Part shown: positions 3,996-40,588 of the stretch, in pieces
Layout of the letters: every line of letters starts with the position of its first letter
Position numbering within the stretch: position 1 is the stretch's first letter
Assembly (NCBI GenBank): GCA_005883085.1
Contig: VBAY01000047.1
Span: 1-40,588, forward strand
Length of the DNA: 40,588 nucleotides
Reading direction: 5' to 3'
Source of the DNA: Candidatus Bathyarchaeota archaeon
GTDB taxonomy: Archaea; Thermoproteota; Bathyarchaeia; 40CM-2-53-6
Notes under the pieces: generated by a model
What the model was told of the DNA's origin: nothing
Database searches by the model: none
What the model saw: the letters and a program-made list of their open reading frames with translations, nothing else
Position numbers and translations under genes: made by a program

Positions 3996-4703
3996 ATGAA
4001 TAGGATGGGACGAGCGGCACTGGCTGAGGCCTATGGGACCTTTCTTCTCACCATGATTGGGCCAGGGACAATTATGGCTGTCACGTTGCTCGATGTCGGG
4101 GGAACGAGTGCAGGACTCGGCTTTATCGGGCTCGCCCACGGAGTAGCTCTCTTGTTGGCGGTGTACACTATAGGTCGCTTGACCGGTGCCCACATCAATC
4201 CCGCGGTGACAATAGCTCATTGGGCTACACGGAGGATGGAGACAAAGAAGGTGGCACCGTACGTTCTGGGACAGCTTGCAGGCGCGTCCGTTGCTGGTTT
4301 CATTCAGCTCGCATTGTGGACCTCTAGCAACAGCCCTAGACTCCTGCGGGCGGCTCATTCAACCTTCCTTGGAGATACCGTTCCAAGCCCTGAATTCGGA
4401 ATCGGAGCGGTGCTTCTAGCCGAAGTGATCGGTACTGCCATTCTCGTCTTCACCGTATTCGGGGCCACCGACAAGGCTGCCGACCCAAGCCGGGCAGGTG
4501 TCACCATAGGATTCGCTCTGGCAGCGATCATCTGGATGTTCGGCCCGGTTTCTGGGGCGTCCCTTAACCCTGCTAGAACGTGGGGGCCGACCCTCGCTTC
4601 AGCAGTGTTCAGCCTGACCCCGCTAGGGAATCTATGGATATATGTCGTTGGCCCGGTTCTGGGAGGGTTGCTTGGAGCCTTCCTATACGATGCGTTCAGG
4701 TAG
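3996..4703 (+). CDS. MIP-family channel (aquaporin)
   Basis: Six hydrophobic segments, two NPA boxes (GAHINPAVT, GASLNPART), AE motifs in TM1 and TM4. TATA-like tatata at ~3961-3966. Confidence 0.95.
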   Translation: MNRMGRAALAEAYGTFLLTMIGPGTIMAVTLLDVGGTSAGLGFIGLAHGVALLLAVYTIGRLTGAHINPAVTIAHWATRRMETKKVAPYVLGQLAGASVAGFIQLALWTSSNSPRLLRAAHSTFLGDTVPSPEFGIGAVLLAEVIGTAILVFTVFGATDKAADPSRAGVTIGFALAAIIWMFGPVSGASLNPARTWGPTLASAVFSLTPLGNLWIYVVGPVLGGLLGAFLYDAFR

Positions 4704-8651: not shown

Positions 8652-9410
8652 ATGACCGTATCTGAGACGACGAAGAAGGCCCTGAAGCATTTTGGACTGA
8701 CTGAATACGAGGTCAAGGCCTACATTGCTCTCGTGGAGGCCGGGCCAGTGCCCGCCAGCCAACTCAGCACGACAGCAGGGATTCCATATTCTAAGATCTA
8801 CGAAATACTGGGAAATCTTGAGCGAAAGGGTTGGGTGGAGACAGAGCAAGGTAGGCCGAGTAAGTATTTTGCCAAACCTCCGTCCACCGCTCTTGAATCC
8901 TCCAGAGTTCGAATGGAGAATACGCTCAAGTCAAGCCAGAGCGATGCGCTGACCGAACTGCAACCTCTTTACGAGAAGAAAGAGGTCCAAGAGAGACCAG
9001 ACATATGGATCGTAAGGGGACAGAACAATATTCTAGACAGGATCAAAGAGACTCTGGGGAGAACGAGGAGGGAACTGCTGGTTGCCATGCCCGTACTTCC
9101 GGACTCACTGATTTCAGTGGCCGCCCCATTGCTCTCCAACATGAACAGTAGGGGGATAAAGGTCTCAATAATGGTTCCAAGTGTTACCGCCAAAGAGGCG
9201 ATCAGGAGGCTGAAGGGCTTGGCGGAGGTCCGAGTTCGAGAGCAAATGTTCGGTGGAGGGATGATCTCAGACAGCAACCAGATAATTATTCTTCTAGGAG
9301 AAGAACCTGAAAAGGGGCTCACCCTAGCGATATCCTCGGAACATGTGGGACTCGTGAAGTTCGGAAAAATATACTTCGAATTTCTTTGGGAGAACTCCAG
9401 GCTTGCTTAA
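8652..9410 (+). CDS. trmB: TrmB-family transcriptional regulator
   Basis: FGLTEYEVKAYIAL...IPYSKIYEILGNLERKGWV...GRPSKYFAKPP winged-HTH signature plus a C-terminal effector domain. Confidence 0.92.
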   Translation: MTVSETTKKALKHFGLTEYEVKAYIALVEAGPVPASQLSTTAGIPYSKIYEILGNLERKGWVETEQGRPSKYFAKPPSTALESSRVRMENTLKSSQSDALTELQPLYEKKEVQERPDIWIVRGQNNILDRIKETLGRTRRELLVAMPVLPDSLISVAAPLLSNMNSRGIKVSIMVPSVTAKEAIRRLKGLAEVRVREQMFGGGMISDSNQIIILLGEEPEKGLTLAISSEHVGLVKFGKIYFEFLWENSRLA

Positions 9411-9462
9411 GCTGTGGACCGGACAAAAGGTAAAAGACCATGAGGAAGTAGCCACGGGCGAT

Positions 9463-9630
9463 GCTCCGGTGGTGTAGCCCGGTTTAGCATAGCGGCCTTA
9501 GCCCAAGAACGAAGGATGGGCGGCGAATCGAGCTCTGGCCGGGTGGCGGCGGAGAATCGAGAACTCCAGAGCCGTTGATCGCGGGTTCAAAAGCGGCCAG
9601 GAGCCGCGGAGAATCCCGCCCGGAGCACCA
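9463..9630 (+). tRNA. tRNA-Glu(UUC) with encoded CCA and four predicted BHB/BHL introns (9500-9527 at 34/35; 9531-9556 and 9557-9569 in tandem at 37/38; 9592-9613 at 59/60)
   Basis: Acceptor GCTCCGG/CCGGAGC+ACCA, D-stem GTGT/GCAT, anticodon stem GCGGC/GCCGT, T-stem GCGGG/CCCGC. Removing the introns gives anticodon loop CT-TTC-GA and T-loop TTCAAAT. Confidence 0.85.
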
Positions 9631-9699
9631 CCAACGAGCTACCACAGGGCTTATTTCGAATCTGGATCCTCAAAACGGCATAGCGCCTCGACAATACGG

Positions 9700-9816
9700 G
9701 CGGGGGTACCATAGCCAGGTCAAATGGGCAGTGGACCTGGATGAGAGCGGGTCCGCCTATGGCTTAGGACCCTGTGGCGAAGGCCTTCGTGGGTTCGAAT
9801 CCCACCCCCCGCACCA
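9700..9816 (+). tRNA. tRNA-Leu(UAG) with a non-canonical 29-nt intron at 29/30 (9732-9760) and encoded CCA
   Basis: Acceptor GCGGGGG/CCCCCGC+ACCA, spliced anticodon arm CAGGG-CTTAGGA-CCCTG, long variable arm, TTCGAAT. Splice motif: helix GGGC/GCCT, bulges AG|T and AT|G, intron stem GGACCTG/CGGGTCC. Confidence 0.92.
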
Positions 9817-10117
9817 GATTCAAAGTTTCTTTCTGATTACAAAGAGGATGTTTCATCAATCGGGTCTGACATGAATTTACGCGAGGGTTGCAATAGAAGA
9901 CAGGCTTCTCAAACTGACTGCCAATTCAAAAGGATTCATTGAATATTCACATAACTTACAAGAGACGATTATTCAACCGACCGCGTGAAATACGACCGGG
10001 CGCCAGGTCTTTGCGGAAGCCAGCAGATCGCACTATCGGCAATCCAGAGAGCGGCGGCCGCCGAAGAGCATTTCTATAACGGGCTACGCCCTGCTACTAT
10101 CAGAGCGGCCTCTCGTA

Positions 10118-11041
10118 ATGCAGCAACGAAAAATCTTCTTCCTCGTCCTTTTGTTACTAACCCTTTTCCCGGTCACCGTTGTTGCCGAGTCAAGGGCAGC
10201 TCCCGTAGACGTGACTGTGACCGCGACGGGGGCAACCTTGAACATGCACCTCTTGCTAATGGAGAATCTCACTTCGCTGCCAAAAATCAGCTTGTACCTG
10301 GGATCCACAAATTCTACAACCATCGCCGGACCAATCGCTAAGGGTATTCAGAAACTACTGCCAGATGCAAGGGTCACGAGCATTGAGCTGCACGCTAAAA
10401 CCCTGAACGCCACCGGAAGATGGGTCCTCCAAGAAAACTACACCATTCAGATCTCAGGCTCAAACGGAGGAACTGGAAGTTTCGTCAGATCAGACCTCAG
10501 TTATCTATCCATGAATGTCAACGACTCGATTAACATCGCTGGGGCAGAGCTGAACACCGTTGGCGCTGAATACCTCCTCGCGCCTCTTAACGCACAGGAC
10601 CCTTCGCAGACTCGGTATTTTATCGACAATACTGAAACCCTCAACACGGTTATCCCCGCTCTGACAACGAAAGTGTTTGCTCTGCTCGACTTTAGCTGGG
10701 TTCCACAAGTTGCCGCCTGGGATCGCCAGAATGATGTTCTCAAACAGACGACAAAATGGACAATAACCCCATCAAGTCCACGATACAACCTTACACTCGG
10801 TAAACGATCTCCGGAGGGTATCTTAAGGGGAGCCCTAGTAGCAGTTTATGATCCGTCCCTAGAGCTTACAGTCAGCCACAACGCATGGGCTCAGGGAACA
10901 CAGATCGTCTTTAGCCTTCCGAACCCCTTTGACGTGTGGATGCCAGGCATCATAGCAATTCCAATCGTAGTGTGGGCTGTCAGCTTCACCTTGGAGAGGA
11001 ACTTCACAGGACGCGCCCCTTCCAAGAGGAAAAAACGATAG
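10118..11041 (+). CDS. Secreted, C-terminally membrane-anchored hypothetical glycoprotein
   Basis: Signal peptide MQQRKIFFLVLLLLTLFPVTVVA, several N-x-S/T sequons, C-terminal hydrophobic helix and basic tail SKRKKR; TATAA at ~10075. Confidence 0.8.
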   Translation: MQQRKIFFLVLLLLTLFPVTVVAESRAAPVDVTVTATGATLNMHLLLMENLTSLPKISLYLGSTNSTTIAGPIAKGIQKLLPDARVTSIELHAKTLNATGRWVLQENYTIQISGSNGGTGSFVRSDLSYLSMNVNDSINIAGAELNTVGAEYLLAPLNAQDPSQTRYFIDNTETLNTVIPALTTKVFALLDFSWVPQVAAWDRQNDVLKQTTKWTITPSSPRYNLTLGKRSPEGILRGALVAVYDPSLELTVSHNAWAQGTQIVFSLPNPFDVWMPGIIAIPIVVWAVSFTLERNFTGRAPSKRKKR

Positions 11042-25950: not shown

Positions 25951-28458
25951 CTAACTCGTGACTGTAAGTGTGCCGCTGCTCGGGACGTTGCCTAGTACGC
26001 TAGAGGCTGTGAGTGCTGTGGCTGTCAAGCCGTACTGAATCATTGCAGAATAGCTGTATCTTGTGCCGAGGGTACTAGCAGGGAGCGCCGCGGAGAACGC
26101 GAGGTTACTGATGGACTGTCCTGGAAGCAACTGTACCACTATCGATGTAGCTGTGAAAGTCTTTGTGCCTGTAGAGTCGATTCCGATGACCTGGATGCTC
26201 ACGAACAGTGTTGTCGCAGTGTCGAAATTCGTGATTCCAGCTTTGGAGGTGTAGATGCCATTATCTCTGCTGAGTGATACCTTGTGCACTGGCACGAACT
26301 GGATGAACTGTGGTGACGCTGGTACGTGGACGGTCGCGGTCGTGGTGTGCGTTATAGGTCCCGCAATCCCAGTGACGCTAGCAATGTAGTCGCCGGCTGG
26401 GGTTTGAGGTGTTACCCGTACAGTGAGGGTCGTGTGGTTGGGGGTGAAGACGTCTATGAATGTTTGACGCACGGGCACTGAAGCGATAGGGCCGTAGACT
26501 CCACAGTCCGCACATGTACGGACACCGTTGGGGAAGATTATGGTCTGTGGTACCCGTGTTCCGTTGGGGAAGTACACTTGGACGAGGCGGAGCTGCGGGT
26601 TACCCGGAAGCTGTGGGACACGTGTTCTCTCTGGATTTGTGGCGCCGAGGTATGCAACTCCGTTGAACCCGATTTGGAAGTTGGTTGCCGCGAAGCCTCC
26701 GAGACTGGCCAAGTTGATCGTTGAGGTCGCGGGAGTTCCAGGTATGACCGTGAGAGCGGTAGTAACTAGGTGTATCGAAAAGTCGCCTAGTGCGATTGTC
26801 AAGAAGACTCGGTGGGTTATGCTACCGCTGGTAACGCTGATGACGACAGTATAGTTGCCTAGCGCTGAGTTGGCGGTCGTCTCGACCGATAATGTCGAGA
26901 ACACGACGCCGCCTGCGGTCAGCGTAGCTGTCGCGGGGTCGAACCTGGTTACAAGTACGGTTGAGCATGGCGAACAATTGGCCGGTGTATTGGTCCCAGT
27001 TGGAATGACTGTTGCGGAGAAGGTTAGTGGGCCTGCGAATGTTGTTGCGCTGGAGACTTTGATTCCGGAACTCGCGCTTAGACTGGCAAAGGTGATAATG
27101 TGATCTGGGATAGCAGCGAGGTTGAAGTCAGTGCCCGTGATGACAAACGTAACGTCAACGGTATTGGTCACGCCTGCGCTTGTGGCGGTGACTGTGATGT
27201 CATAGGCTGCAAAGTCGGCGGTTGTCGGGATGGTGATTGTCAGGGTGGCTGTGGTGGTTCCGTACGCCGAGAGGGTGACGGAGGCAGGGCTGACAGCGCT
27301 TGTGGGACCGTTAATGTTGACCGCAGTGCTGAATGATATAGTGTCTGCGAAAGCGCTTATGCTGGTGAGGGTAAGGGTGGATGTGCTTGATCCTCCGATG
27401 GGTATGATGAGACCGTTCGCGGGGCTCGCGCTAATGGAAAAGTCTTGTGGAGTGTCCTGGACAACGACGTTTTGGCTATGACTTACTCCAACGGAGCTGG
27501 TCCCGGTCGCCGTTATGACGAAGGTGGGGAATAATAGAATGTCGCCGCCGTTCACGTCAAAGCCGGGGGTCGGATCTGGGGCTGGGCCCGCGGTTAGAGT
27601 GGCCGTAGCCATTCCATTAGCGGGGAGGAAGAGGCTTGGCACGCTGAGCGATACTGCGATAGGTGGTACGGTGGTGCTGCCGATTGGATTGCCGTCCGCG
27701 TCGAAGCTTGGCGGATTGGCGCCTACGCCTGACACAGCGTTAAGGCCGATGGTGTCGGTGAAGCCAGCTTGACTAGTGAGTGTGATGGTGAAGGCGAAGC
27801 TGGAACCTGGCGCAACTGTGGTTGAGTCGGGGGTTACTGCAAAGTTGTAGTCCGCGCCGTGCATGAAGGTGGCCTCCTGAATCGAGACGGGAACTGGAGG
27901 GGCCCCGGGGACACCGTTCGCGATTGTCACACAGACATCTGGGCCTACGCTTGTGCCCGAGCAGCCTGTGTTGAAGAAGATCGGTGTACCGTCTGAGCCG
28001 GCTAGGACTTTGAACACTGCAGTGAACAGTAACCCGTTGGTTGGCGGTGTTGTAGTGGCACCTGCCGTATTGACGGCGGCAAGGTGTACTACTCCGTCAG
28101 CGTCTTGTGGAGCGCATGATGAGCCAGCTTGTAGCAAGCCGTTGATGCAAATGACCAGTGCGCTGAAAGGAATGATGCTGCCTGTGAGATCCGCGCTGAC
28201 CCCGGTGAGGATCGTGGGATCGCTTCTAACCTGAATGTCAAACCCGTTAAGGGCGTCTACTCCTGAAGCTCGAACAGCTATTCTGAGCAAGCCTCCAGGG
28301 GCTTGGTCTAGTGTTGGTGGAAGTGCAGGGCATCCGGTTGTTGATGGATCTGCGAGACATATTTGGCCCGCTGCGTGGGCGTTTGGTATTGCTGGTACGA
28401 CGAATAGGCTTGTAAGTAGCATCAATGGTATGAGGATTACTTTTTCAAGTTTTTTCAA
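25951..28458 (-). CDS. Secreted scaffold: cohesin-like domain + about four Ig-like repeats + conserved C-terminal beta-domain, no TM
   Basis: Signal peptide ending PNAHA; cohesin-like DALNGFDIQVRSDPTIL...TNGLLFTAVFKVLAGSDGTPIFF; repeats of D(F/Y)xxxxxP...STxTLTS...F...GxYxxxVTxTSG; C-terminal domain homologous to that of the giant protein. Confidence 0.82.
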   Translation of the reverse strand: MKKLEKVILIPLMLLTSLFVVPAIPNAHAAGQICLADPSTTGCPALPPTLDQAPGGLLRIAVRASGVDALNGFDIQVRSDPTILTGVSADLTGSIIPFSALVICINGLLQAGSSCAPQDADGVVHLAAVNTAGATTTPPTNGLLFTAVFKVLAGSDGTPIFFNTGCSGTSVGPDVCVTIANGVPGAPPVPVSIQEATFMHGADYNFAVTPDSTTVAPGSSFAFTITLTSQAGFTDTIGLNAVSGVGANPPSFDADGNPIGSTTVPPIAVSLSVPSLFLPANGMATATLTAGPAPDPTPGFDVNGGDILLFPTFVITATGTSSVGVSHSQNVVVQDTPQDFSISASPANGLIIPIGGSSTSTLTLTSISAFADTISFSTAVNINGPTSAVSPASVTLSAYGTTTATLTITIPTTADFAAYDITVTATSAGVTNTVDVTFVITGTDFNLAAIPDHIITFASLSASSGIKVSSATTFAGPLTFSATVIPTGTNTPANCSPCSTVLVTRFDPATATLTAGGVVFSTLSVETTANSALGNYTVVISVTSGSITHRVFLTIALGDFSIHLVTTALTVIPGTPATSTINLASLGGFAATNFQIGFNGVAYLGATNPERTRVPQLPGNPQLRLVQVYFPNGTRVPQTIIFPNGVRTCADCGVYGPIASVPVRQTFIDVFTPNHTTLTVRVTPQTPAGDYIASVTGIAGPITHTTTATVHVPASPQFIQFVPVHKVSLSRDNGIYTSKAGITNFDTATTLFVSIQVIGIDSTGTKTFTATSIVVQLLPGQSISNLAFSAALPASTLGTRYSYSAMIQYGLTATALTASSVLGNVPSSGTLTVTS

Positions 28459-28699
28459 TACGTATTACCCGTTTTTCCTGCGTGCTTATCGGCATCCACT
28501 CGATATAAGAGTTTTCGATATGTGTATCCTCGTTTATAGCCATGAGACACTTGAGATTGAGGTAGACTTCCCAAGTATTCTTGAAATATACGATCGGTAA
28601 ACAGGCCTGCCTCGAAACGGGCTTGGATGGGGAATCAAGATCGTTTCCGGTAAGATCGAACAGGGGCTTTGTATCGCCGATCTTTTCATGGTCTGGGGG

Positions 28700-30319
28700 C
28701 TAGGACTTGGTTCCAAATGCTCGGGCCGCTATACTGACGTCGATGATGTCGATGATGCCGTTGTTGTTGATGTCACAGTGAGGGTCCCATCGCGAAGGAG
28801 TGGCGGGTGTGAATCCGAAATCATAGAAGAACACTGCTACATCAATAATGGTGACTGAGCCGTCTTGGTCAATGTCCCCCAAGGGAATTACGTGGGTAAC
28901 CCTGGTGAATGTGACATTATTGTCAGCCTGGTTGGGGACTGTCTCGCCAGGAACTGGACTGACGTAGGCGGCGACCGAGTACCATGCGGGCTTCCAGTTG
29001 GTCGTATTCATGCTGAACGATAGATTGACTGTGCCTCCGGGTACTGCAAGGTTCTGCTTCGTTACAGAGTTGTAGGAGCTAGAGTTGTATACGGTGAGGG
29101 CAGCTGTTACTATTTCGCTCTGGTCGCCACGATTAAGGATGGTCGCGGTGAATGAGACGATGGCGCTTTGGCCGATTGACGCGAGCCCGCCTGGGTATTC
29201 GATCTGCGTCGACGGGGTAACCGATGTAATTGTTACATCGTGTATTGGCTGTATCGGGCTGGATATTAGCGCGTAAATGTCCTCGTTTGAGACGGGGTTC
29301 GTTGTGTAGAAGAGCCAGATGGACTTGTTGTAAGTGGACTGGACGCCATATGGCTGCATACTGTCAACACTGGTCGAAGTGTTTGTCATCTGGATTTCTG
29401 CGGACCAGGTTGTGCCGCTGTTGTAGGAGTATTTGGAGTAGAGGAGGTAGTAGAAGGAGAGGCCACTGTAGTAGTGCTTCCTCGACCAGAAGAGCCACAT
29501 TGTCCCGTTCCGATCCTGCATAATCGCGGCATGCTCGTCGGAATCAGTCGAGGCGACAACCTTGGTCTCCGCACTCCAGCCCGCTCCGTTGTATGTCCTG
29601 TAGTATACCTGGTAATTCTCGAGAGATCCTAATCCTTTCGACCAGACTACTCTTACAATGTTGTCTTTGCCAACCGTTATGCCGGAGCCCCAGTTCTGGT
29701 TCGTGTCCGAGGTCAGCTTCGTTTCTGTGGACCAGACTCCTGCTTTCAAGGTCTTGTAGTAGAGCTGTTTAGCAGGATCAGTACAAGAGCCGCTGCAGGT
29801 CGAGTTATTCCTTGTCCAGACGAGCCAGAGAGTCCCATCCCTACCAACAGCAGCGGAGGGATTCGTATCGTTGAGAGATGTGCTCGACGCTTGTAGAGGA
29901 TTTGACCATCCTCCAGGACTGTTGTACATCTTGTAGTAGATGAGATAGCTGGCTGCAGGCTTGTACGCCCAGAAAAGCAGGATAGTTCCGTTCGATAACT
30001 GCGCTAGCGCTGCACCCGCGTTTATCCCACCAGTTGTTAGCCGCGATACTGTCGACCAGACCCCGTTTGTGTACGTCTTGTAGGAGATATCGTACTGGGA
30101 GTCTCCTCTGTACCTGTTCGTTTGCCAAGCCAGCCACATGGTCCCGTTGCTGGCTTGGAGACCTGCGTTCAAAATATTGATTCCCGCGTTGTTCTCGATC
30201 GCCGTAGGGCTTCCCCAAAGGGTAGTGGCAGTGACAGGGTGGAACACCAGCGGGAGAAAGACTAGTCCGGCCACAGACAATAGGACTAGGCAAAGTCCCC
30301 GAAGCGATCGCTTCGTCAA
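28700..30319 (-). CDS. Second secreted Asp-box beta-propeller + CARDB-like Ig + dockerin protein
   Basis: Paralog of 24044-25729 (LNDTxPSAxVxRDGTLWLxW, QDRNGTxWLFW, SYNSGTTW); dockerin GDIDQDGSVTIIDVAVFFYDFG...WDPHCDINNNGIIDIIDVSIAARAFG (28703-28879). Confidence 0.85.
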   Translation of the reverse strand: MTKRSLRGLCLVLLSVAGLVFLPLVFHPVTATTLWGSPTAIENNAGINILNAGLQASNGTMWLAWQTNRYRGDSQYDISYKTYTNGVWSTVSRLTTGGINAGAALAQLSNGTILLFWAYKPAASYLIYYKMYNSPGGWSNPLQASSTSLNDTNPSAAVGRDGTLWLVWTRNNSTCSGSCTDPAKQLYYKTLKAGVWSTETKLTSDTNQNWGSGITVGKDNIVRVVWSKGLGSLENYQVYYRTYNGAGWSAETKVVASTDSDEHAAIMQDRNGTMWLFWSRKHYYSGLSFYYLLYSKYSYNSGTTWSAEIQMTNTSTSVDSMQPYGVQSTYNKSIWLFYTTNPVSNEDIYALISSPIQPIHDVTITSVTPSTQIEYPGGLASIGQSAIVSFTATILNRGDQSEIVTAALTVYNSSSYNSVTKQNLAVPGGTVNLSFSMNTTNWKPAWYSVAAYVSPVPGETVPNQADNNVTFTRVTHVIPLGDIDQDGSVTIIDVAVFFYDFGFTPATPSRWDPHCDINNNGIIDIIDVSIAARAFGTKS

Positions 30320-30417
30320 GCCTTCGCTAGTCCCCTAGCAAATCTCGGATTGCTTCACTGTGGCAGAATGGAAAAGATCAATGATACGGAGATGGTGCGT
30401 GGAGTATGACATGATTC

Positions 30418-30453
30418 TAATAAAACAAAGAAGGGAGTTGGAGGGGGGTTTTG
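30418..30453 (-). terminator. Pyrimidine-rich terminator candidate after the giant gene
   Basis: Minus strand AAAACCCCCCTCCAACTCCCTTCTTTGTTTTATT just after the stop at 30465. Confidence 0.5.
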
Positions 30454-30464
30454 GCTTTGCCGTT

Positions 30465-33400
30465 CTACGCGAGTATGGTGAAGCTTCCGCTAGTTCGGAC
30501 GAAGCCGATGGCCGCTGTGCTCTGTTGTGTTAGCGATGTCGGGCTGGTGCCCCAGAGTATCACCATCTGGAAACTGAACGACCTGCCAATGTCCGCGTTG
30601 GTGAACGTCTTCGTCAGGATCAGGTTGGTCAGCAATTGATTTGGCGCGAGAGTGATCACTGATGATGTCAGGGTGAAGGGTACAAAGCCGGCTCCGTCGA
30701 CCACGTTGATCTGTACTTGGGCATAGACGGTTGTGCTGGGATCGGTGTTTTGCAGGCCGAATCTCCATTGCTGCTGGAAGTTATTCTTGGAAAGTTGCAG
30801 GCGCTGCTTCCAGTTGCTCTGGCCAAACGCTGGTGCTGACACCTGTGCACCGCTTACCGTCACATTGACGTTGGTGGAGTGCGTTATTGTCCCGCTCGTG
30901 CCTGTCACGGTCACGATGTAGGTGCCGTTTAGTGAACCCATTACGGTGAGGGTGCTTGAGCCAGACATCATTATACTTGTTGGGCTGAGGGAGGCTGTGA
31001 GTCCCGTGGATGGATTGACGGTGGCCGTTAGGCTGACTGTGCCGCTGAATCCGTTGATGGGGGTGATGGTGATCGTTGAGGTTCCGGTTCCGCCGACGGA
31101 TATGGTGAATGAGGCTGGGCTGGCTGTTATGGTGAAGTCGGGTGTCGTGACATGCAGTGTAATTACTGCGGTTGTGTGGGAGAGCAAGCCGCTAGTCCCT
31201 GTTACGGTGACGGTGTAGTCGCCGTTCGCCGCTGCACTGAGGGATAGGGTTGTGCTGTCGAACCCGCTTGAGAGGACGAGGACGCTCTTGCCGAGAGTGG
31301 CGGTTAGGCCGGCTGACGGGCTTGTCGTAAGCGAGACACTGCCTGCAAATCCGTTGACACTACTTGCGGATATCGGTGTCGTGCATGTTACACCTGGAGT
31401 ACAGTTGACTGTTACCGCCGCGGAGGGTGAAATTGTGAAGTCGTTGAAGTTGAACGTCGCCGTCGCGGAGTGGCTGAGGCTTCCACTGGTGGCCGTGATT
31501 GCAACACTGAACGTGCCGGCTGACGTCGACTTGCATGATACGGTCGAGGTCTGCGGGGACGGTGGCAGTGTTACGCTGGAAGGTGTTACTGAGCAGACAA
31601 GCGGTGCTAGAGCTGTGGCAGAGAGTGTTACAGCTCCTGCAAACCCATTGAGACCGGTGACGGTGACCGTGGAGGACGCGGTTGTGGTCCCATCGGCTGG
31701 AGCCGCGGCTGGCGCGGACGCGCTAATCGTGAAGTCGACCACATGGAATAGGATTGCGGAAGTGGTGTGGGTTAGACCGCCGCTTGTTCCTGTTACGGTG
31801 ACGGTGTAGTCACCAGCAGTTGCAGCGGAGCATGAGAGTGTCGAGGTCTGCGGAGATGTTCCGAAGGTCACACTGGTGGGTGTCAAACCGCATAGTAGAC
31901 CTGTTGGTGTTGAGGCGGACACGGAGAGGTTGACTGTTCCTGTGAAGCTTCCGATAGAAGTTACCGTTATTGTTGAGGTGCCAGAGGCGCCTGCAAGTAT
32001 CTGGGAGGGAGTGACTGCGCTAGCTGAGATGCTGAAGTCCTGTCCTCCGGGTGACACTGCGACGATGACCGTTCGGGTCAGAGTTCCGCTTGTGCCAGTG
32101 ATTGTGACGCTGAAGCTGACGGCACCCGTACATCCCGCAGTTAGGGTTGCGGCGTTAGGTGTTGGGAGAGTGACAGAGGCGGGGGATATGGTGGCTGTGC
32201 ATCCAGCTGGAACGACCGATGTGACGGCTAGCGAGATGCTTCCAGTGAATCCGTTGAGGGCGTTCGCGGATATCGTAGAGGTGCCCGTGTTAGGTGCAGT
32301 GTAGCTGATGCTGGAGGGACTTGAGGTTAGAGTGAAATCGGTTACATGGAAGAGAATTGTTGCCGTCATATGAGATAATGTTCCGTCAGTTCCGGTTACG
32401 ATGACAGTGTAGTCACCTGCTGTTGCTGCGGAGCAGCTCAAGGTTGCTGTTTGTGGGGATGTGCCGAAGGTTACGCTAGCTGGCAACGTGCATGTTAATC
32501 CTGCAGGGGTAGATGCGGATACCGCGAGATTGACGGTTCCGGTCAGGCCATTAATCGCCGTTACGGTGATCGTTGAGGTGCCAGACGCTCCGACCAGTAT
32601 CTGGGTTGGCGATACTGCGCCTGAGGCGATTGTGAAGTCAACGACGTGGAAGAGAATCGAGGCGGTGGTGTGACTCAAGGTTCCATCGGTACCAGTTACT
32701 GTAACGGTGTATTGGCCTGCTGTTGTTGCGGAGCAACTAAGCGTAGCAGTCTGAGGCGATGAGCCGAATGTCACACTCGCCGGGAGGGTGCATGTCAAAC
32801 CGGCCGGAGTGGATGCTGATACTGCAAGTATTGGCCTGCCGTTGTGGCGCTGCATGATAGTGTCGCGGTCTGTGGCGAAGTGCCGAATGTTACGCTGGCG
32901 GGTAGAGTGCAGGTTAGACCCGCAGGTGTAGAAGCGGACACTGCAAGATTGACAGTGCCGGTTAGACCGTTGACCGCCGTTACGGTGATGGTTGAGGCGC
33001 CGGACCCGCCTGCGAGTATCTGTGTTGGGGATACGGCTCCTGCTGCGATTGCAAAGTCAACCACATGGAATAGGATTGCGAAAGTAGTCTGGGTTATGCT
33101 GCCGCTTGTTCCTGTTACGGTGACGGTGTAGTCACCAGCAGTTGCAGCGGAGCATGAGAGTGTCGAGGTCTGCGGAGATGTTCCGAAGGTCACACTGGTG
33201 GGTGTCAAACCGCATAGTAGACCTGCAGGTGTTGAGGCAGACACTGACAGATTGACCGTTCCTGTAAAGCCTCCTTGGGCGGTCAGCGTTATTGTCGATG
33301 TTCCAGACGCACCTGCCAGGATCTGGGAGGGAGTAACAGCACTGGCGGCGATAGTGAAGGTCTGTCCTCCGGGTGATACCGAGATAGTGACGGTTCGGGT

Positions 33401-36400
33401 CAGAGTTCCGCTTGTGCCAGTGATTGTGACGCTGAAGCTGATGGCACTCGTACATCCCGCAGTTAGGGTTGCAGTGTTAGGCGTTGGAAGGGTGACGGAG
33501 GCTGGCGAGATCGTGGCTGTGCATCCAGCTGGAACAACCGATGTAACGGCCAACGAGATGCTGCCGGTGAAGCCGTTGAGAGCGTTCGCGGTTATTGTGG
33601 AAGTGCTTGTGTTGGGCGCAGTGTAGGTTATACTGGCTGGACTCGAGGTTAGGTTGAAGTCGGTTACATGGAAGAGGATTGTTGCCGTTGTATGACTGAG
33701 CGTTCCGTCAGTTCCGGCTACGGTGACTGTGTAGTCTCCTGCCGCTGATGCCGTGCACGAGAGTGTCGCAGTCTGCGGAGAAGTTCCGAAGGTGACACTA
33801 GCTGGTAACGTGCATGTCAGACCCGCGGGTGTAGATGCGGACACTGCTAGGTTCACAGTACCAGTCAAACCATTGACCGCGGTTACTGTGACAGTTGAGG
33901 TTCCAGAAGATCCCACTAGGATCTGTGTTGGTGAAACCGCTCCCGCTGCGATCGTGAAGTCTACAACATGGAAGAGAATTGTTCCTGTTGTATGAGTAAG
34001 TGTTCCATCAGTTCCAGTCACTGTTACGGTGTAATCGCCCGCTGACGCTGCGGTGCAGGACAGTGTTGCTGTCTGTGGAGATGTTCCAAATGTGACGCTA
34101 GCCGGGAGGGTGCATGTCAAACCGGCCGGAGTGGATGCTGATACTGCGAGATTGACAGTTCCCGTTAGACCGTTGACTGCTGTGACTGTGATCGTTGAGG
34201 CTCCGGAGCCGCCTGCGAGTATCTGTGTTGGAGATACTGCGCCCGCTGCAATCGTAAAGTCGACAACATGGAACAGTATTGTTCCAGTTGTGTGACTCAA
34301 CGTACCGTCTGTTCCTGTAACAGTTACTGTGTAATCACCTGCGGAGGCCGCACTGCACGACAATGTTGCGGTTTGCGGCGAGGTTCCGAAAGTGACGCTT
34401 GCCGGGAGAGTGCAGGTTAGTCCAGCAGGTGTGGACGCAGATACTGCGAGGTTAACAGTTCCAGTCAGCCCGTTGAGGGCGGTGACGGTTATGGTCGATG
34501 TGCCGGATGCTCCAGCGAATATCTGGGCTGGCAGGACTGCGCCTGCGGCAATTGTGAAGTCGACGACATGGAAGAGTATGGCAGATGTAGTGTGGCTTAG
34601 AGCGCCGCTTGTTCCTGTTACGGTAACAGTGTAATCGCCAGCAGTAGCGCTGCATGATAGTGTCGCGGTCTGTGGAGAAGTTCCGAAAGTGACACTCGTC
34701 GGTGCTAGGGAGCATATTAGACCGGCAGGTGTCGACGCGGACACTGCGAGGTTCACGGTGCCGGTGAATCCGTTCAATGCAGTGAGGGTGATCGTGGAGG
34801 TTCCTGACGAGCCTGCGAGAATCTGGGTTGGGGTGACAGCACTTGCAGCGATGGTGAAGTCGGCTCCTGGACTGACCGGTACAGTTACGGTTCGGGTCAG
34901 AGTTCCGCTTGTGCCAGTGATTGTAACGCTGAAGCTGATGGCACTAGTGCAGCCCGCTGTCAGAGTCGCAGTGTTAGGTGTTGGAAGGGTGACGGAGGCT
35001 GGCGAGATCGTGGCTGTGCATCCAGCTGGAACGACCGATGTGACGGCTAGCGAGATGCTTCCAGTGAATCCGTTCTGAGCATTAGCAGTTATCGTGGAGG
35101 TCCCTGTGTTGGGTGGAGTGTAGGTAATGGTGGTTGGGCTCGCGGTAATGGTGAAGGCGGTCACGTGGAACAGAATCGATGCGGTCGTGTGCGATAATGT
35201 TCCATCTGTTCCTGTGACTGTTACGGTATAATCAGCTGCATTAGCAGCAGAGCAAGACAATGTTGCTGTCTGCGGCGAGGTTCCGAAAGTGACGCTGGCG
35301 GGTAGAGTGCAGGTTAGACCTGCGGGGGTGGAGGCGGAAACTGCGAGACTAACTGTGCCGGTCAAACCATTGACCGCAGTCACAGTGATAGTCGAGGTTC
35401 CGGAGGCCCCGGCGAGGATCTGGGCGGGACTAACAGCTCCGGCAGCAATGGTGAAGTCAACGACGTGGAAGAGAATTGTCGCTGTCGTGTGAGTGAGAGT
35501 TCCATCAGTACCAGTTACTGTGACAGTGTAGTCACCCGCAGCAGTTGCGCTGCATGACAATGTTGCGGTCTGTGGAGATGTTCCGAAGGTGACACTAGCT
35601 GGTAACGTGCATGTTAGACCTGCGGGTGTAGAGGCGGATACCGCAAGGTTGACAGTGCCTGTAAGACCGTTCACAGCGGTCACTGTTATCGTAGAGGTTC
35701 CGGAGGAACCGGCTAGTATCTGGGTTGGCGATACTGCGCCTGCGGCAATTGTGAAGTCAACGACGTGGAAGAGAATCGAGGCGGTGGTGTGACTCAAGGT
35801 TCCATCGGTACCAGTTACTGTAACGGTGTATTGGCCTGCTGTTGTTGCGGAGCAACTAAGCGTAGCAGTCTGAGGCGATGAGCCGAATGTCACACTCGCC
35901 GGGAGGGTGCATGTCAAACCGGCCGGAGTGGATGCTGATACTGCAACGGCGGTGCATGATAGTGTCGCGGTCTGTGGGGAAGTGCCGAATGTTACGCTGG
36001 CAGGGAGAGTGCAGGTTAGTCCCGCTGGGGTCGAAGCGGATACTGCTAGGTTCACGGTGCCTGTGAACCCGTTCACCGCTGTTACGGTAATTGTCGAGGT
36101 TCCTGATGCTCCGGCTAGAATCTGGGAAGGAGCAACTGCTCCAGCGGCGATGGTATAGTCTACTACATGGAATAGGATTGTGCCTGTAGTGTGGGTTAGA
36201 GTGCCGCTTGTACCCGTAGCAGTGACGGTATAGTCACCTGCTGCTGATGCACTGCACGATAGTGTCGAGGTTTGCGGGGAAGTTCCGAAAGTGACACTCG
36301 TCGGTGCTAGGGAGCATGTTAGACCGGCAGGTGTCGACGCGGACACTGCGAGGTTCACGGTGCCGGTGAATCCGTTCAGTGCGGTTAAGGTGATCGTGGA

Positions 36401-39400
36401 GGTTCCAGAAGATCCAGCAAGGATCTGGGCAGGGCTGACAGCGCCTGCAGCTATGCTAAAGTCGGCTTGCGGCGTGAACGTGACGGTGACTGTGCGGGTC
36501 AGACTGCCGCTCGTGCCGCTTACTGTGACCGTGAAGGTGACTGAGCAGCTTCCGGCTGTTAGTGTTGCGGTGTTGGGTGTTGGAAGAGTGACGGTTGACG
36601 GGGATATTGTATTCGTGCAACCAGAGGGTGGAGTCGAGGTGATTGTTAGGGCGATGCTTCCAGTGAAGCCGTTCTGAGCGTTCGCGGTTATAGTGGAAGT
36701 GGAGGTGCCTGGCGGAGTGAAGCTGACTGTTGAGGGGTTGGCAGTAAGGGTGAAGGCAACTACGTGGAATAGAATTGTTGTTGTAGTGTGTGTTAGGGTT
36801 CCATCGGTTCCAGTTACTGTGACAGTATAGTCGCCTGCGTTTGCAGCACTACACGACAGTGTAGCGGTCTGCGGTGAGGTTCCGAAGGTGACACTAGCGG
36901 GTAGAGTGCAGGTTAGTCCTGCGGGTGTGGATACTGATACCGCAAGATTGACAGTTCCTGTCAGGCCGTTGAGAGCTGTTACAGTGATTATCGAGGTTCC
37001 GGAGGCTCCTGCAAATATCTGCGCAGGAGATACCGCGCCTGCTGCAATCGTAAAGTCGACAACATGGAAGAGAATCGTCGCGGTGGTGTGGCTTAGGGTT
37101 CCATCAGTTCCGGTTACCGTAACCGTGTAGTCTCCTGCTGCTGCAGCTGTGCATGAGAGGGTTGCAGTCTGCGGAGAAGTTCCGAATGTGACACTGCCTG
37201 GGAGGGTGCATGTCAAGCCAGCTGGAGTGGAAGCAGATACTGCTAGGTTTACTGTCCCGGTTAGACCGTTCAGCGCGGTTACAGTGATTGTCGAGGTCCC
37301 GGAGCTGCCGGCGAATATCTGGGCTGGGCTAACTGCTCCGGCAGCAATCGAAAAGTCAACAACATGGAATAGTATATTGGCAGTAGTGTGAGAGCGAGTT
37401 CCGACACTCCCAGTGACTGTTACTGTGTAATCACCGGCGGTTGCGGCACTGCATGACAGTGTCGCGGTCTGGGGCGATGTACCGAATGTGACACTCGCGG
37501 GGAGGGTGCAGGTCAATCCGGCTGGAGTGGAGACGGAAACTGCGAGGTTGACAGCGCCAGTCAGTCCATTGACTGCTGTGACTGTGATAGTGGAGGTTCC
37601 AGAAGCACCAGCAAGTATCTGTGTCGGTGATACCGCTCCGGCTGCAATCGTAAAGTCGACAACATGGAAGAGAATCGTCGCGGTGGTGTGGCTTAGGGTT
37701 CCATCAGTTCCAGTTACGGTAACGGTGTAGTCACCCGCTGTCGCGGCGCTACAAGATAGTGTGGCTGTCTGTGGAGACGTGCCAAACGTCACACTTGCTG
37801 GAAGAGTGCATGTCAAACCGGCTGGAGTGGAGGCGGAAACTGCAAGGTTAACTGTACCGGTTAAGCCGTTGACAGCAGTTACTGTAATCGTTGAGGTTCC
37901 TGAAGCAGCCGCTAGTATCTGAGCCGGGGACACTGCTCCCGCAGCGATGGTGAAATCAACAACGTGGAAGAGAATCGTCGCAGTCGTATGAGTGAGAGTT
38001 CCATCGGTTCCAGTTACTGTGACAGTATAGTCGCCTGCAGCAGTTGCAGAGCAACTCAATGTCGCAGTCTGAGGCGAAGTTCCGAAAGTAACGCTAGCAG
38101 GTAAGGTGCACGTAAGACCTGCGGGTGTCGAGGCCGAGACCGCAAGATTCACAGTACCAGTCAGGCCGTTCAGCGCTGTTACGGTGATCGTGGACGTTCC
38201 GGAGCTGCCCGCGAAAATCTGCGCAGGCGAAACTGCTCCTGCGGCGATCGAGAAGTCTACCACGTGGAAGAGGATGGTTGCAGTGGTGTGACTGAGGGTT
38301 CCGTCGGTACCCGTGACAGTGACAGTGTAGTCAGCTGCTGTCGAGGCGCTGCATGATAGTGTCGCTGTTTGTGGGGATGTTCCGAATGTTACGCTGGCAG
38401 GGAGAGTGCAGGTTAGTCCCGCTGGGGTCGAAGCGGATACTGCTAGGTTGACGGTGCCAGTTAGACCGTTGAGAGCTGTAACAGTCACAGTTGAGGTCCC
38501 GGATGAACCAGCTAGTATCGTGGCAGGACTCACTGCACCGGCAGCGATGGTGAAGTCTACTACGTGGAAGAGAATCGCCGCGGTAGTGTGGGTGCGAGCG
38601 CCATCAGTGCCTGTTACAGTTACTGTATAGTCGCCTGCAGCAGTTGCAGAGCAACTCAATGTCGCAGTCTGAGGCGAAGTTCCGAAAGTAACACTGGCAG
38701 GCAGAGTGCATGTCAAGCCAGCTGGAGTGGAAGCTGACACCGACAATCCAACTGCTCCTGTCAGTCCATTGACTGCTGTGACTGTGATAGTGGAGGTTCC
38801 AGAAGCACCAGCAAGTATCTGTGTTGGTGATACCGCGCCTGCTGCAATCGTAAAGTCGACAACATGGAAGAGGATCGTCGCGGTGGTGTGGCTTAGGGTT
38901 CCATCAGTTCCAGTTACCGTTACGGTATAGTCGGCCGCGTTAGCGGCGCTGCAGCTGAGAGTCGCGGTCTGAGGCGATGTACCGAATGTCACACTCGCTG
39001 GAAGGGTGCAGGTTAGGCCTGCGGGTGTGGATGCAGATACTGCTAGGTTGACCGTACCAGTCAAGCCGTTCAACGCAGTTACAGTAATAGTTGACGTGCC
39101 TGAGGATCCTGCGAGAATCTGGGCCGGAGATACTGCTCCAGCAGCGATGCTGAAGTCTACAACATGGAAGAGGATCGTTGCTGTCGTATGACTGAGGGTC
39201 GCGTCTGTTCCCGTAACGGTTACGGTATAATCGGCCGCTGCTGCGGCGCTGCAGGATAATGTCGCTGTCTGTGGGGATGTTCCGAATGTTACGCTGGCAG
39301 GTAGAGTGCATGTCAAGCCAGCAGGGGTGGATGCTGATACCGCGAGATTGACCGTTCCGGTCAGACCATTCAACGCTGTTACAGTAATAGTTGACGTGCC

Positions 39401-40588
39401 TGAAGAGCCCGCTAGTATCTGAGTTGGTGATACTGCCCCGGCTGCGATCGTGAAGTCAACTACATGGAAGAGAATTGCTGCGGTCGTCTTAGTGCGAGCT
39501 CCATCTGTACCGGTGACAGTTACCGTGTAGTCGCCCGCGGTCGCCGCGCTACAGGATAGTGTAGCAGTCTGAGGCGAAGTGCCGAAGGTCACGTTGGGTA
39601 CGGTGCACGTTAGACCTGCAGGAGTGGAGGCAGAAGCCGCGAGGCTTACAGTTCCGGTCAATCCATTGACGGCTGTGACCGTGATCGTGGATGTTCCAGA
39701 TGCTCCAGCTAGTATCTGGGCTGGGGACACGGCGCCCGCAGCGATATTGAAGTCGACTACGTGGAAGAGGATTGTCGCGGTAGTGTGGCTTAGAGTTCCG
39801 TCAGTTCCAGTTACGGTTACGGTGTAGTCAGCTGCTGCGGCTGCACTGCATGACAATGTGGCAGTCTGTGGCGATGTCCCGAATGTAACGCTGGCAGGCA
39901 AGGTGCATGTCAAGCCGGCCGGAGTAGAGACAGACACCGCAAGGTTGACCGTGCCGGTCAAGCCGTTCAACGCTGTAACAGTTATTGTCGAAGTGCCAGA
40001 AGATCCGGCCAGTATCTGGGTAGGTGATACAGCTCCGGCGGAGATGCTGAAGTCTACAACATGGAAGAGAATCGTTGCTGTCGTATGACTAAGGGTCGCG
40101 TCTGTTCCTGTAACAGTCACGGTGTAGTCGCCTGCTGCCGCTGCAGAGCAGCTCAATGTGGCAGTCTGAGGTGAAGTTCCGAAGGTAACACTTGCTGGAA
40201 GAGTGCATGTTAGTCCTGCAGGTGTGGAAACTGATACTGCGAGATTGACAGTTCCGGTCAATCCGTTCAGCGCTGTGACGGTTATTGTGGACGTTCCAGA
40301 GCTGCCCGCGAAAATCTGGGTTGGACTAACCACTCCGGCTGCAATGCTGAAGTCTACAACATGGAACAGGATCGCGGCAGTAGTGTGAGACAACGCAGCA
40401 TTGGTGCCTGTAACCGTGACAGTGTAGTCACCCGCAACCGTCGCGCTGCAGGATAGTGTCGCAGTCTGGGGCGATGTTCCGAATGTTACGCTAGGAGGTA
40501 GAGTGCAGGTTAGACCCGCAGGCGTAGACGCGGAAACCGACAGGTTCACCGTGCCCGAGTAGCCAGTCGCACCCGCTGTAACTGTGAT
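30465..40588 (-). CDS. Giant surface protein of about 33 tandem ~100-aa Ig-like modules plus a C-terminal beta-domain (5'-truncated by window; one frameshift at ~32828, probably an assembly artefact)
   Basis: Frame open from base 40588 (ITVTAGATGYSGTVNLSV...). ORFs 32795-40549 and 30465-32855 carry the same repeat DFTIAAGAVSPTQILAGxSGTSTITVTAxNGLTGTVNLAVSASTPAGLTCTLPASVTFGTSPQTATLSCSAxxAGDYTVTVTGTDGTLSHTTATILFHVV. Confidence 0.88.
31740..40588. repeat. Coding tandem repeat array with ~300-bp period and a higher-order ~1.5-kb unit
   Basis: The FHVVD codon block recurs at 300-bp multiples (e.g. acatggaagag near 37062, 37662, 38862). Variant B modules lie at ~32045-32340, ~33365-33660, ~34864-35160 and ~36467-36758. 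Confidence 0.92.

Follow-up and report, generated by a model that had tools for sequence, protein, structure and literature searches.

Archaeal tRNA genes have been described with up to three introns each. Passages of three papers (PMC4390854; Fujishima and Kanai 2014, PMC4033280; and PMC8450103) state three as the maximum; in two of them the three-intron genes belong chiefly to Thermoproteales, and the last gives two examples from Pyrobaculum. The closest of these cases to the present one is the pre-tRNA-Glu(UUC) of Pyrobaculum calidifontis, which carries three introns (Kanai 2015, PMC4390854). Here we describe a gene that exceeds this limit, the tRNA-Glu(UUC) gene at positions 9463-9630 of a 40,588-nt stretch of DNA from Candidatus Bathyarchaeota archaeon, contig VBAY01000047.1 (the whole stretch is called the window below). 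The gene, from a soil archaeon, is real, conserved and expressed, and four small introns interrupt it: intron 1 at tRNA positions 34/35, introns 2a and 2b, which abut one another at 37/38, and a fourth at 59/60 (Table 1). Fifteen other genes of its relatives likewise hold four introns, and two (L017 and L018) hold five. A sequence-only reading of the window had placed four introns at or beyond the usual maximum and multi-intron genes mainly in Thermoproteales; four does exceed the stated three, but congeners reach five, and the Thermoproteales placement stands in the reviews while the present host is a soil member of the Bathyarchaeia.

The gene shares several characteristics with those of Thermoproteales, as passages of PMC4390854 present them: strict and relaxed bulge-helix-bulge (BHB) motifs, an endonuclease that here too would have two subunits, and genes that standard scanners miss. 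Unlike them, it belongs to a group of genes with four or five introns in soil Bathyarchaeia, two of the introns abut at one position, and the first of these to be removed, as we read them, uses a copy of the anticodon stem that is itself borne by an intron. Ordered removal as such is not new, because the principle is already in print: in the tRNAscan-SE 2.0 paper (PMC8450103), passages on the iterative search describe two or three close introns, one of which has to go before the motif of the second can form. The same passages contain no pair of introns sharing one position, no stem copy, no tetrad that is used twice and no RNA intermediate. In the nuclear tRNAs of the red alga Cyanidioschyzon merolae, several motifs are removed in a set order, the one in the anticodon arm last, with intermediates seen at the RNA level (passages of PMC3728597); C. 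merolae is a eukaryote, however, and its motifs fold independently, with the order tied to stability or position, whereas the motif that would be last here, that of 2a, cannot form until two introns are gone.

Two further systems are comparable in part. The soil Asgard archaea Atabeyarchaeia and Freyarchaeia also lie outside Thermoproteales, and passages of PMC11291895 report introns in 92-95% of their tRNA genes, more than half with several and many non-canonical; they belong to a different phylum, and the per-gene maxima are in that paper's supplement, which may include genes with at least four introns. The twintrons of euglenid plastids (PMC3534033) place two introns at one site and remove them sequentially, which is an analogy only: they are self-splicing group II/III introns in protein genes, whereas an endonuclease would cut both introns here, and the second adjoins the first exactly at its 3′ junction and is not nested in it. 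In open-access text we found no report of such a gene under four-intron archaeal tRNA, ordered splicing, Bathyarchaeota tRNA introns (a single, unrelated match), non-canonical introns of metagenome-assembled genomes or archaeal twintron; the only match to ‘four introns’ was the red alga paper, where the phrase counts T-loop introns. What is new here is an intron number above those recorded, a new lineage for such genes, and a device of abutting introns that share a tetrad and use a stem decoy.

The window is contig C87 of a metagenome-assembled genome (MAG), G000, with 1.71 Mb in 287 contigs and a completeness of 78%. Joining the four exons by their coordinates gives 79 nt, which ARAGORN calls as a clean cloverleaf tRNA-Glu(ttc) with a 7-bp acceptor stem, a 5-bp anticodon stem that includes one G-U pair, a T arm and an encoded CCA. 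Once the introns are removed, the sequence forms a cloverleaf whose anticodon loop is intact, and the same holds for all 23 distinct homologous genes once spliced: ARAGORN calls tRNA-Glu(ttc) in 23/23 after removal of the annotated introns versus 2/23 before. All exons are colinear on one strand within 168 nt, and an RNA contig described below spans 9476-9692, so the gene is neither split nor permuted; a second tRNA-Glu(UUC) 5′ exon was not found in the 78%-complete assembly. The four introns proposed from the sequence, with their boundaries, are in this way confirmed by the spliced product, by their motifs and by the relatives. In particular, intron 1 does split the anticodon and leave a 3-nt exon, TCG, which is present at positions 35-37 in all 18 genes with this layout.

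We scored each candidate splice motif by three counts: the pairs, out of four, in the central helix between the 3-nt bulges; the consecutive outer pairs; and the consecutive inner pairs. The same score was used to compare one- and two-intron models of the 37/38 insert and an alternative parse of the gene. In the primary transcript, intron 2b scores (4,7,0) and the 59/60 intron (3,5,5), while intron 1 scores (3,0,5) in any context, a relaxed motif with a central helix, a 5′ bulge and an inner helix and with no outer helix. Intron 2b forms its motif with the 3′ end of 2a, where a copy of the anticodon-stem 5′ strand, GGCGGC (9545-9550), is followed by a purine tetrad, GGAG (9551-9554), and then by AA: the copy pairs with GCCGTT (9571-9576) as the outer stem, and the tetrad pairs with CTCC (9564-9567) as the central helix. 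By contrast, the 39 nt at 37/38 taken as one intron make two of four central pairs in the primary transcript and none after removal of intron 1, and in every one of the 18 long-insert genes that one-intron model yields at most one of four once intron 1 is gone. Intron 2a, in turn, depends on the state of its neighbors. Its score starts at (1,0,3) in the primary transcript and becomes (4,0,3) when intron 1 alone is gone, (1,6,3) when 2b alone is gone and (4,7,3) when both are gone. Its motif needs intron 1 gone because U35 must come next to U34, and it needs 2b gone because A38 and its stem must come next to GGAGAA. The dependence also runs in the other direction, since 2b drops from (4,7,0) to (2,6,0) if 2a is removed first. 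All four introns therefore have the BHB form, in which a 4-bp helix lies between two 3-nt bulges, or an accepted relaxed form with a single flanking helix or a loop, 2a only after the removal of intron 1 and 2b. On each of these points the sequence-only reading has held: it had denied the 39 nt a motif as a unit, assigned 2b a bulge-helix-loop on an intron-borne mimic of the anticodon stem with the stems and cuts given here, and made the canonical BHB of 2a conditional on two prior removals.

When the letters of each intron were shuffled in place, a score as high as the observed one came up in 4 of 5000 trials for the 37/38 pair, with the best split allowed, and in 0/5000 for 34/35 and 0/5000 for 59/60, the site of the fourth intron in the sequence-only reading. 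A scan of cut-site pairs over the 168 nt returned 5 candidates at the strict level (one of them 2b), 49 at the medium level, which adds the 59/60 intron, and 404 at the relaxed level. Pair counts alone are too unspecific, and the weight rests on the relatives and on RNA.

The gene is widely shared among close relatives. A scan with the first exon against one genome per species matched 21 contigs. The titles read Candidatus Bathyarchaeota or Bathyarchaeia for 17 of them, Crenarchaeota archaeon for two, archaeon for one and Dormiibacterota for one, and several include soil-depth labels. The 168 nt were matched in 40 of 41 related genomes, 14 of them from end to end or with just the final two bases unmatched, and the full-length matches fall in the genus and one sister genus. 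The 41 loci reduce to the 23 distinct genes, and 18 of these have the 34/35 intron together with the abutting pair at 37/38. Five introns are found in L017 (genome G006) and L018 (G004), within about 190 nt from the start of each gene, at 34/35, twice at 37/38, at 53/54 and at 59/60; four are found in 16 distinct genes including this one, L015 having a 70/71 intron in place of the one at 59/60; and fewer in L039 (three), L019 (two) and L020, L031 and L041 (one each). One of the matched contigs, a 76.8-kb contig titled as a Candidatus Dormiibacterota bacterium MAG (DASPWZ010000005.1, L032), holds the same four-intron gene as L013 and has probably been mis-binned from an archaeal genome.

Of the 17 relatives that share this layout, 15 are identical to this gene in their first 76 exon positions and the other two differ at one position, while their introns are only 40-88% identical to those here. 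Identical exons with diverged introns are what one expects of a functional gene in which the drift of the introns is limited by structure alone, and they rule out an assembly chimera. The central helix of intron 1 is complete (4/4) in 15 of the 18 genes that have this intron. The 59/60 intron is present in 21 of the 23 distinct genes. Where it has an A57.G mismatch here, relatives with TGAA at the end of the intron have an A-T pair, which gives a 4/4 central helix. In L017 and L018, the 59/60 motif has zero or one outer pair until the 53/54 intron is gone, and then five; judged by this pairing, the five-intron genes would add a second dependence, that of the 59/60 motif on removal of the 53/54 intron. 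Outside the genus, L054 and L056, from other families of the order, have the 34/35 intron alone, so this intron looks older than the genus. An extra D-loop intron is found in the tRNA-Glu(UUC) genes of L058, L059, L061 and L062 (other families or genera of the order). In L061 and L062, the 37/38 insert works only as two introns, with splits of (4,2,0) with (4,7,3) and (3,2,1) with (4,7,2), the one-intron model giving 0/4 and 1/4 central pairs.

Comparison across the 18 genes supports two introns, not one, at 37/38. The best two-intron split always places the boundary after the purine tetrad and two more letters. With intron 1 and 2b removed, 2a scores (4,7,x) in all 18 genes, its tetrad paired with C32-U35; the central helix of 2b is complete (4/4) in 16 of them and has three pairs in L017. 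The tetrad has the form RRRG in 18/18 genes (GGAG in 5, AGAG in 4, GGGG in 7 and GAAG in 2), and it can consequently pair with CUUU (C32-U35) as well as with the pyrimidine tetrad of 2b. We counted covariation for the 2b motif on an end-anchored alignment of the 18 regions. In the central helix, 95.6% of the cells are paired and three of the four pairs have changed on both sides (GGAG/CTCC, AGAG/CTCT and GGGG/CCCC); the observed covariation score was reached by 0 of 500 shuffles, and sliding the 3′ partner by one to three columns lowers the paired share of the motif as a whole from 89% to 38-56%. The outer stem varies on its intron side only. Fourteen of the 18 genes have the stem copy, which in L010, L016 and L018 contains one internal mismatch.

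RNA sequencing bears on the first step of removal. Twenty public runs hold at least part of a 1.6-kb stretch around the gene; 18 of them, soil metagenomes on record, hold at least half of the sampled words, and two metatranscriptomes hold a small share. We compared two RNA runs (X19 and X20) and two DNA runs (X1 and X2) over 8800-10400, as contigs rather than reads. In metatranscriptome X19, record 11 (204 nt, depth 2.8) covers 9476-9692 with no other letter and with 13 nt missing at 9557. The deletion has no flanking repeat, so its placement is unique and coincides with intron 2b; the gap is found in 2.8 of 2.8 depth in X19 versus 0 of 13.9 in X1 and 0 of 22.4 in X2. The contig retains intron 1, 2a, the 59/60 intron and 62 nt of 3′ trailer, and X19 has no cover over the upstream protein gene (8800-9447). 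Such a molecule fits a resealed splicing intermediate from which 2b has been removed first. This agrees with 2b having the only motif of the anticodon region that is already complete in the primary transcript, and with that motif being part of the minimum-free-energy fold of this transcript (probability 0.74 for the central helix and 0.70 for the outer stem). For comparison, the central helix of intron 1 has a fold probability of 0.52. RNA run X20 covers only a relative's 59/60-intron form and a downstream gene. Two other joints in X19, 9499-9569 with TC between and 9499-9570 with 32 letters between, were considered as splicing and rejected, as they are relatives' genes; the first is also found in DNA run X2.

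The four-intron reading is thus supported by motif scoring, by compensatory conservation in 18 genes, by identical exons beside diverged introns and by one RNA contig. We weigh it against four alternatives. In the first, the 39 nt are excised as a unit by cuts between 9530 and 9531 and between 9569 and 9570 in half-motifs, G37 and A38 are ligated, and the cut between 9556 and 9557 is a side reaction. The 3′ cut of 2b is the same bond as the 3′ end of the whole insert, broad-specificity endonucleases are described in passages of reviews as accepting single bulges beside a helix, and intron 1 itself works with a one-sided motif. One-step removal is nevertheless unlikely: the central helix of the one-intron model is, once intron 1 is removed, empty here and limited to at most one pair in the other genes, the RNA contig is a resealed molecule that lacks only the 13 nt, and the purine tetrad with its two bulge letters, needless for such a removal, has been kept in 18/18 genes.

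A second alternative takes the contig without the 13 nt as DNA of a close strain that lacks 2b, which would leave the splicing order unsupported and the gene still multi-intron. RNA libraries can hold DNA, a depth below five may be error, intron presence varies among relatives, and the rejected X19 joints are an instance of relatives' genes in this very library, one of them also present as DNA. But the contig has no differing letter over 204 nt, although no relative found is closer than 89% identity; neither DNA run shows the deletion, and one of them belongs to the same study; the flanking protein genes have no cover in X19; and among the 23 distinct genes a 2a-type intron with the stem copy is always accompanied by 2b. 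We regard a strain origin as distinctly improbable.

Very improbable is the third alternative, a decaying pseudogene or a chimera of two tRNA-Glu genes whose motifs arose by chance. Standard scanners find nothing at the locus, the fold z-score of the whole 168 nt is only -1.65, and chance candidates by pair count are many. Set against this are exons conserved and introns diverged across 17 relatives, motif helices that covary, the rarity of the observed scores among the shuffles, the missing second copy of tRNA-Glu(UUC) in the assembly, cover of the locus in an RNA library, and a conserved upstream element: an A-rich stretch, CAAAAGGTAAAAGA, stands at an equal distance, judged by eye, in 16 of 22 distinct upstream regions of the homologous genes, and would act as the promoter. 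A chimera, the risk that the sequence-only reading had wanted checked, is excluded by DNA contigs that cross the region without a difference in both runs, X1 record 2 (9474-9729) and X2 records 16 (9470-9593) and 17 (9564-9790), and by the shared layout in independent assemblies of relatives. Scarcely credible, finally, is a parse with a 57-nt intron (9500-9556) at 34/35, exon TCG at 9557-9559 and a 10-nt intron (9560-9569), which exploits the repeat of TCGAG at 9528-9532 and 9557-9561 to give the same mature sequence but totals 11 against 31 for the four-intron parse (the 57-nt intron scores (2,0,3) and the 10-nt intron makes 0/4 central pairs), relies on a second TCG that is TCA in L002 and absent in L005, L006 and L008, and is at odds with the RNA contig, which drops 9557-9569 with the second TCG included.

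Taken as a whole, four BHB-type introns, with 2b removed before 2a and one tetrad used twice, are the explanation in which we have good confidence. According to this mechanism, both strands of the anticodon stem would be held by intron-borne surrogate strands in the primary transcript: the 5′ strand (G30-C32) would pair with the 3′ end of intron 1, and the 3′ strand (GCCGUU) with the GGCGGC copy near the end of 2a. The GGAG of 2a would pair with the CUCC of 2b, creating the bulge-helix-loop, the splicing endonuclease would cut between 9556 and 9557 and between 9569 and 9570, and RtcB would reseal the ends. Three motifs would be ready at once, those of 2b, intron 1 and the 59/60 intron, the last two being cut independently on their own motifs. 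Once intron 1 and 2b are gone, the real anticodon stem could form, GGAG could pair with C32-U35 to complete a canonical 37/38 motif, and 2a would be removed last. Cutting 2a before 2b would be a dead end in which 2b loses its helix partner, and the proposed order would avoid it. Because 2a would wait for ligation across intron 1, the 3-nt exon would never be released as a free trinucleotide. We infer this obligatory order, with 2a last, from pairing geometry, and the RNA contig speaks to its first step.

This genome and its relatives encode candidates for the enzymes that the mechanism would use. In G000 there is one match to the endonuclease catalytic domain (94.7 bits), in a 146-aa open frame that is cut at the end of contig C133. 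Fourteen of 15 congeners have two full-length endonuclease matches in frames of about 175-250 aa, the one scoring 86-96 bits and the other 46-52 bits, and in the fifteenth the high-scoring endonuclease is present as a fragment only. The low-scoring paralogue has Phe and Arg at the aligned sites where the high-scoring, catalytic one has Tyr and His, which fits a structural subunit. For the high-scoring protein of congener G007 (189 aa), the closest solved chains are 3p1z_B, 3ajv_B, 2cv8_A and 2zyz_B (E 1.7e-43 to 6.5e-35), which we take to be catalytic subunits of crenarchaeal two-subunit enzymes. An enzyme of this kind would carry out the cuts, and RtcB is present in the genome (537 bits).

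Several observations weigh against the four-intron reading or against parts of it. Folding of the intermediates and a search for their RNA had both been proposed with the sequence-only reading, and each was answered in part. In the folds, the 2b motif appears in the primary transcript, as described above, but the CUUU/GGAG helix of 2a is never predicted by the nearest-neighbor fold (probability 0.00), forcing the 2a motif costs 6.2-8.3 kcal/mol, and after removal of 2b the stem copy is preferred, the real anticodon stem having a probability of 0.02, or 0.48 once the 59/60 intron is also gone. The single 37/38 introns of L019, L031 and L039 behave likewise, with an unpredicted central helix and a cost of 4.6-7.6 kcal/mol; because these three undisputed canonical introns of relatives fail alike, we do not hold the unpredicted helix against the model. 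Their outer stems, however, do form (0.95-0.98), unlike here. In the RNA, a contig lacking exactly 2b was found, but the X19 and X20 contigs show no removal of intron 1, of 2a or of the 59/60 intron and no mature tRNA. The RNA support is one contig of low depth from one run, of a type of library that can hold DNA, and contigs cannot rank intermediates. With intron 1 gone, 2a reaches (4,0,3), the same relaxed score type as intron 1, so the enzyme might cut 2a before 2b and the order would be kinetic rather than obligatory. The outer helix of intron 1 is absent in all 18 genes. The stem copy is absent in L011-L014, which have one outer pair and an inner helix in its place, and the 2b central helix of L015 pairs at only two of four positions. 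The 78%-complete assembly yielded no second endonuclease subunit.

Table 1. Positions of the parts of the tRNA-Glu(UUC) gene and of its flanking features in the window
Feature	Position	Strand	Description
Promoter-like A-rich element CAAAAGGTAAAAGA	9424..9437	+	Ends 26 nt upstream of tRNA base 1
Exon 1	9463..9499	+	tRNA positions 1-34: acceptor 5′ strand, D arm, anticodon stem 5′ strand, C32 U33 U34
Intron 1, 28 nt	9500..9527	+	At 34/35 in the anticodon; cuts TT↓A and AA↓T
Exon 2, 3-nt micro-exon TCG	9528..9530	+	Positions 35-37; from sequence and ARAGORN
Intron 2a, 26 nt	9531..9556	+	At 37/38; from motif scoring and relatives
Intron 2b, 13 nt	9557..9569	+	At 37/38, abutting 2a; bulge-helix-loop; cuts AA↓T and AG↓A
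Exon 3	9570..9591	+	Positions 38-59: anticodon stem 3′ strand, variable loop, T stem 5′ strand, most of T loop
Intron at 59/60, 22 nt	9592..9613	+	In T loop; outer (T stem), central and inner helices; cuts AA↓A and AA↓T
Exon 4	9614..9630	+	Positions 60-76: T60, T stem 3′ strand, acceptor 3′ strand, discriminator A, encoded CCA (9628-9630)
3′ trailer, 62 nt	9631..9692	+	Still attached in the RNA contig without 2b

The unspliced gene is invisible to ARAGORN and to Rfam; the sequence-only reading had held it probable that standard scanners would mis-call it. ARAGORN calls no gene in the whole window, and its intron option also misses this locus. Rfam gives no tRNA match at 9463-9630 at the gathering score, and at E values up to 10 it gives eight weak matches over 9300-9950, none of them a tRNA match at the gene. 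Across the whole genome G000, Rfam makes 13 tRNA-model matches and ARAGORN, with the intron option, 19 calls, of which five are without an intron and two have implausible introns of 582 and 595 nt. Most tRNA genes of the lineage are probably broken by introns and missed by standard tools. For annotation this is a warning that tRNA counts and completeness measures of such MAGs will come out too low.

A second tRNA gene lies 70 nt downstream at 9700-9816 (+), called by ARAGORN with the intron option as an 88-nt tRNA-Leu(tag) with a 29-nt intron just before the anticodon loop; Rfam sees it weakly, via the tRNA clan. The start of a tRNA-Leu gene is likewise found 3′ of the tRNA-Glu gene in the examined stretches of L002, L003, L005, L006 and L009. 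DNA depth rises to about 1000 at 9772-9825, presumably a conserved 3′ part common to many organisms. Elsewhere in G000, contig C53 holds at about 4440-4560 (-) a tRNA-like gene that starts with GCCCCGG and ends with CCA; it has inserts in the anticodon region and at 59/60, the latter built like that of tRNA-Glu. Over 26000-40588 of the window, GC skew goes from about 0 to between +0.14 and +0.24, and G+C from about 0.52 up to 0.56, in most 2-kb bins of the last 14 kb.

These results raise the known number of introns per archaeal tRNA gene from the three of the reviews to four or five, in a mesophilic soil lineage distant from Thermoproteales. They also provide a conserved example of the way in which a precursor can dictate its own splicing order: one tetrad would serve two helices in succession, and an exon stem has its decoy in an intron. 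The X19 contig is a first, thin RNA hint of the predicted intermediate. Congeners with one to five introns in the same exons offer a natural series for studying intron gain. We give an even chance to the broader proposition that this genus has the most fragmented colinear tRNA genes on record, with four to five introns and a 3-nt exon in 76 nt, with their splicing order written into the RNA by a two-step device at 37/38 and a micro-exon that is never freed. In this device the stem copy borne by an intron would first present the inner intron, and the purine tetrad would then pass to the anticodon loop to form the motif of the outer one. If that is true, the congeners with one to five introns between identical exons would document directly, in a single genus, how introns were gained step by step.

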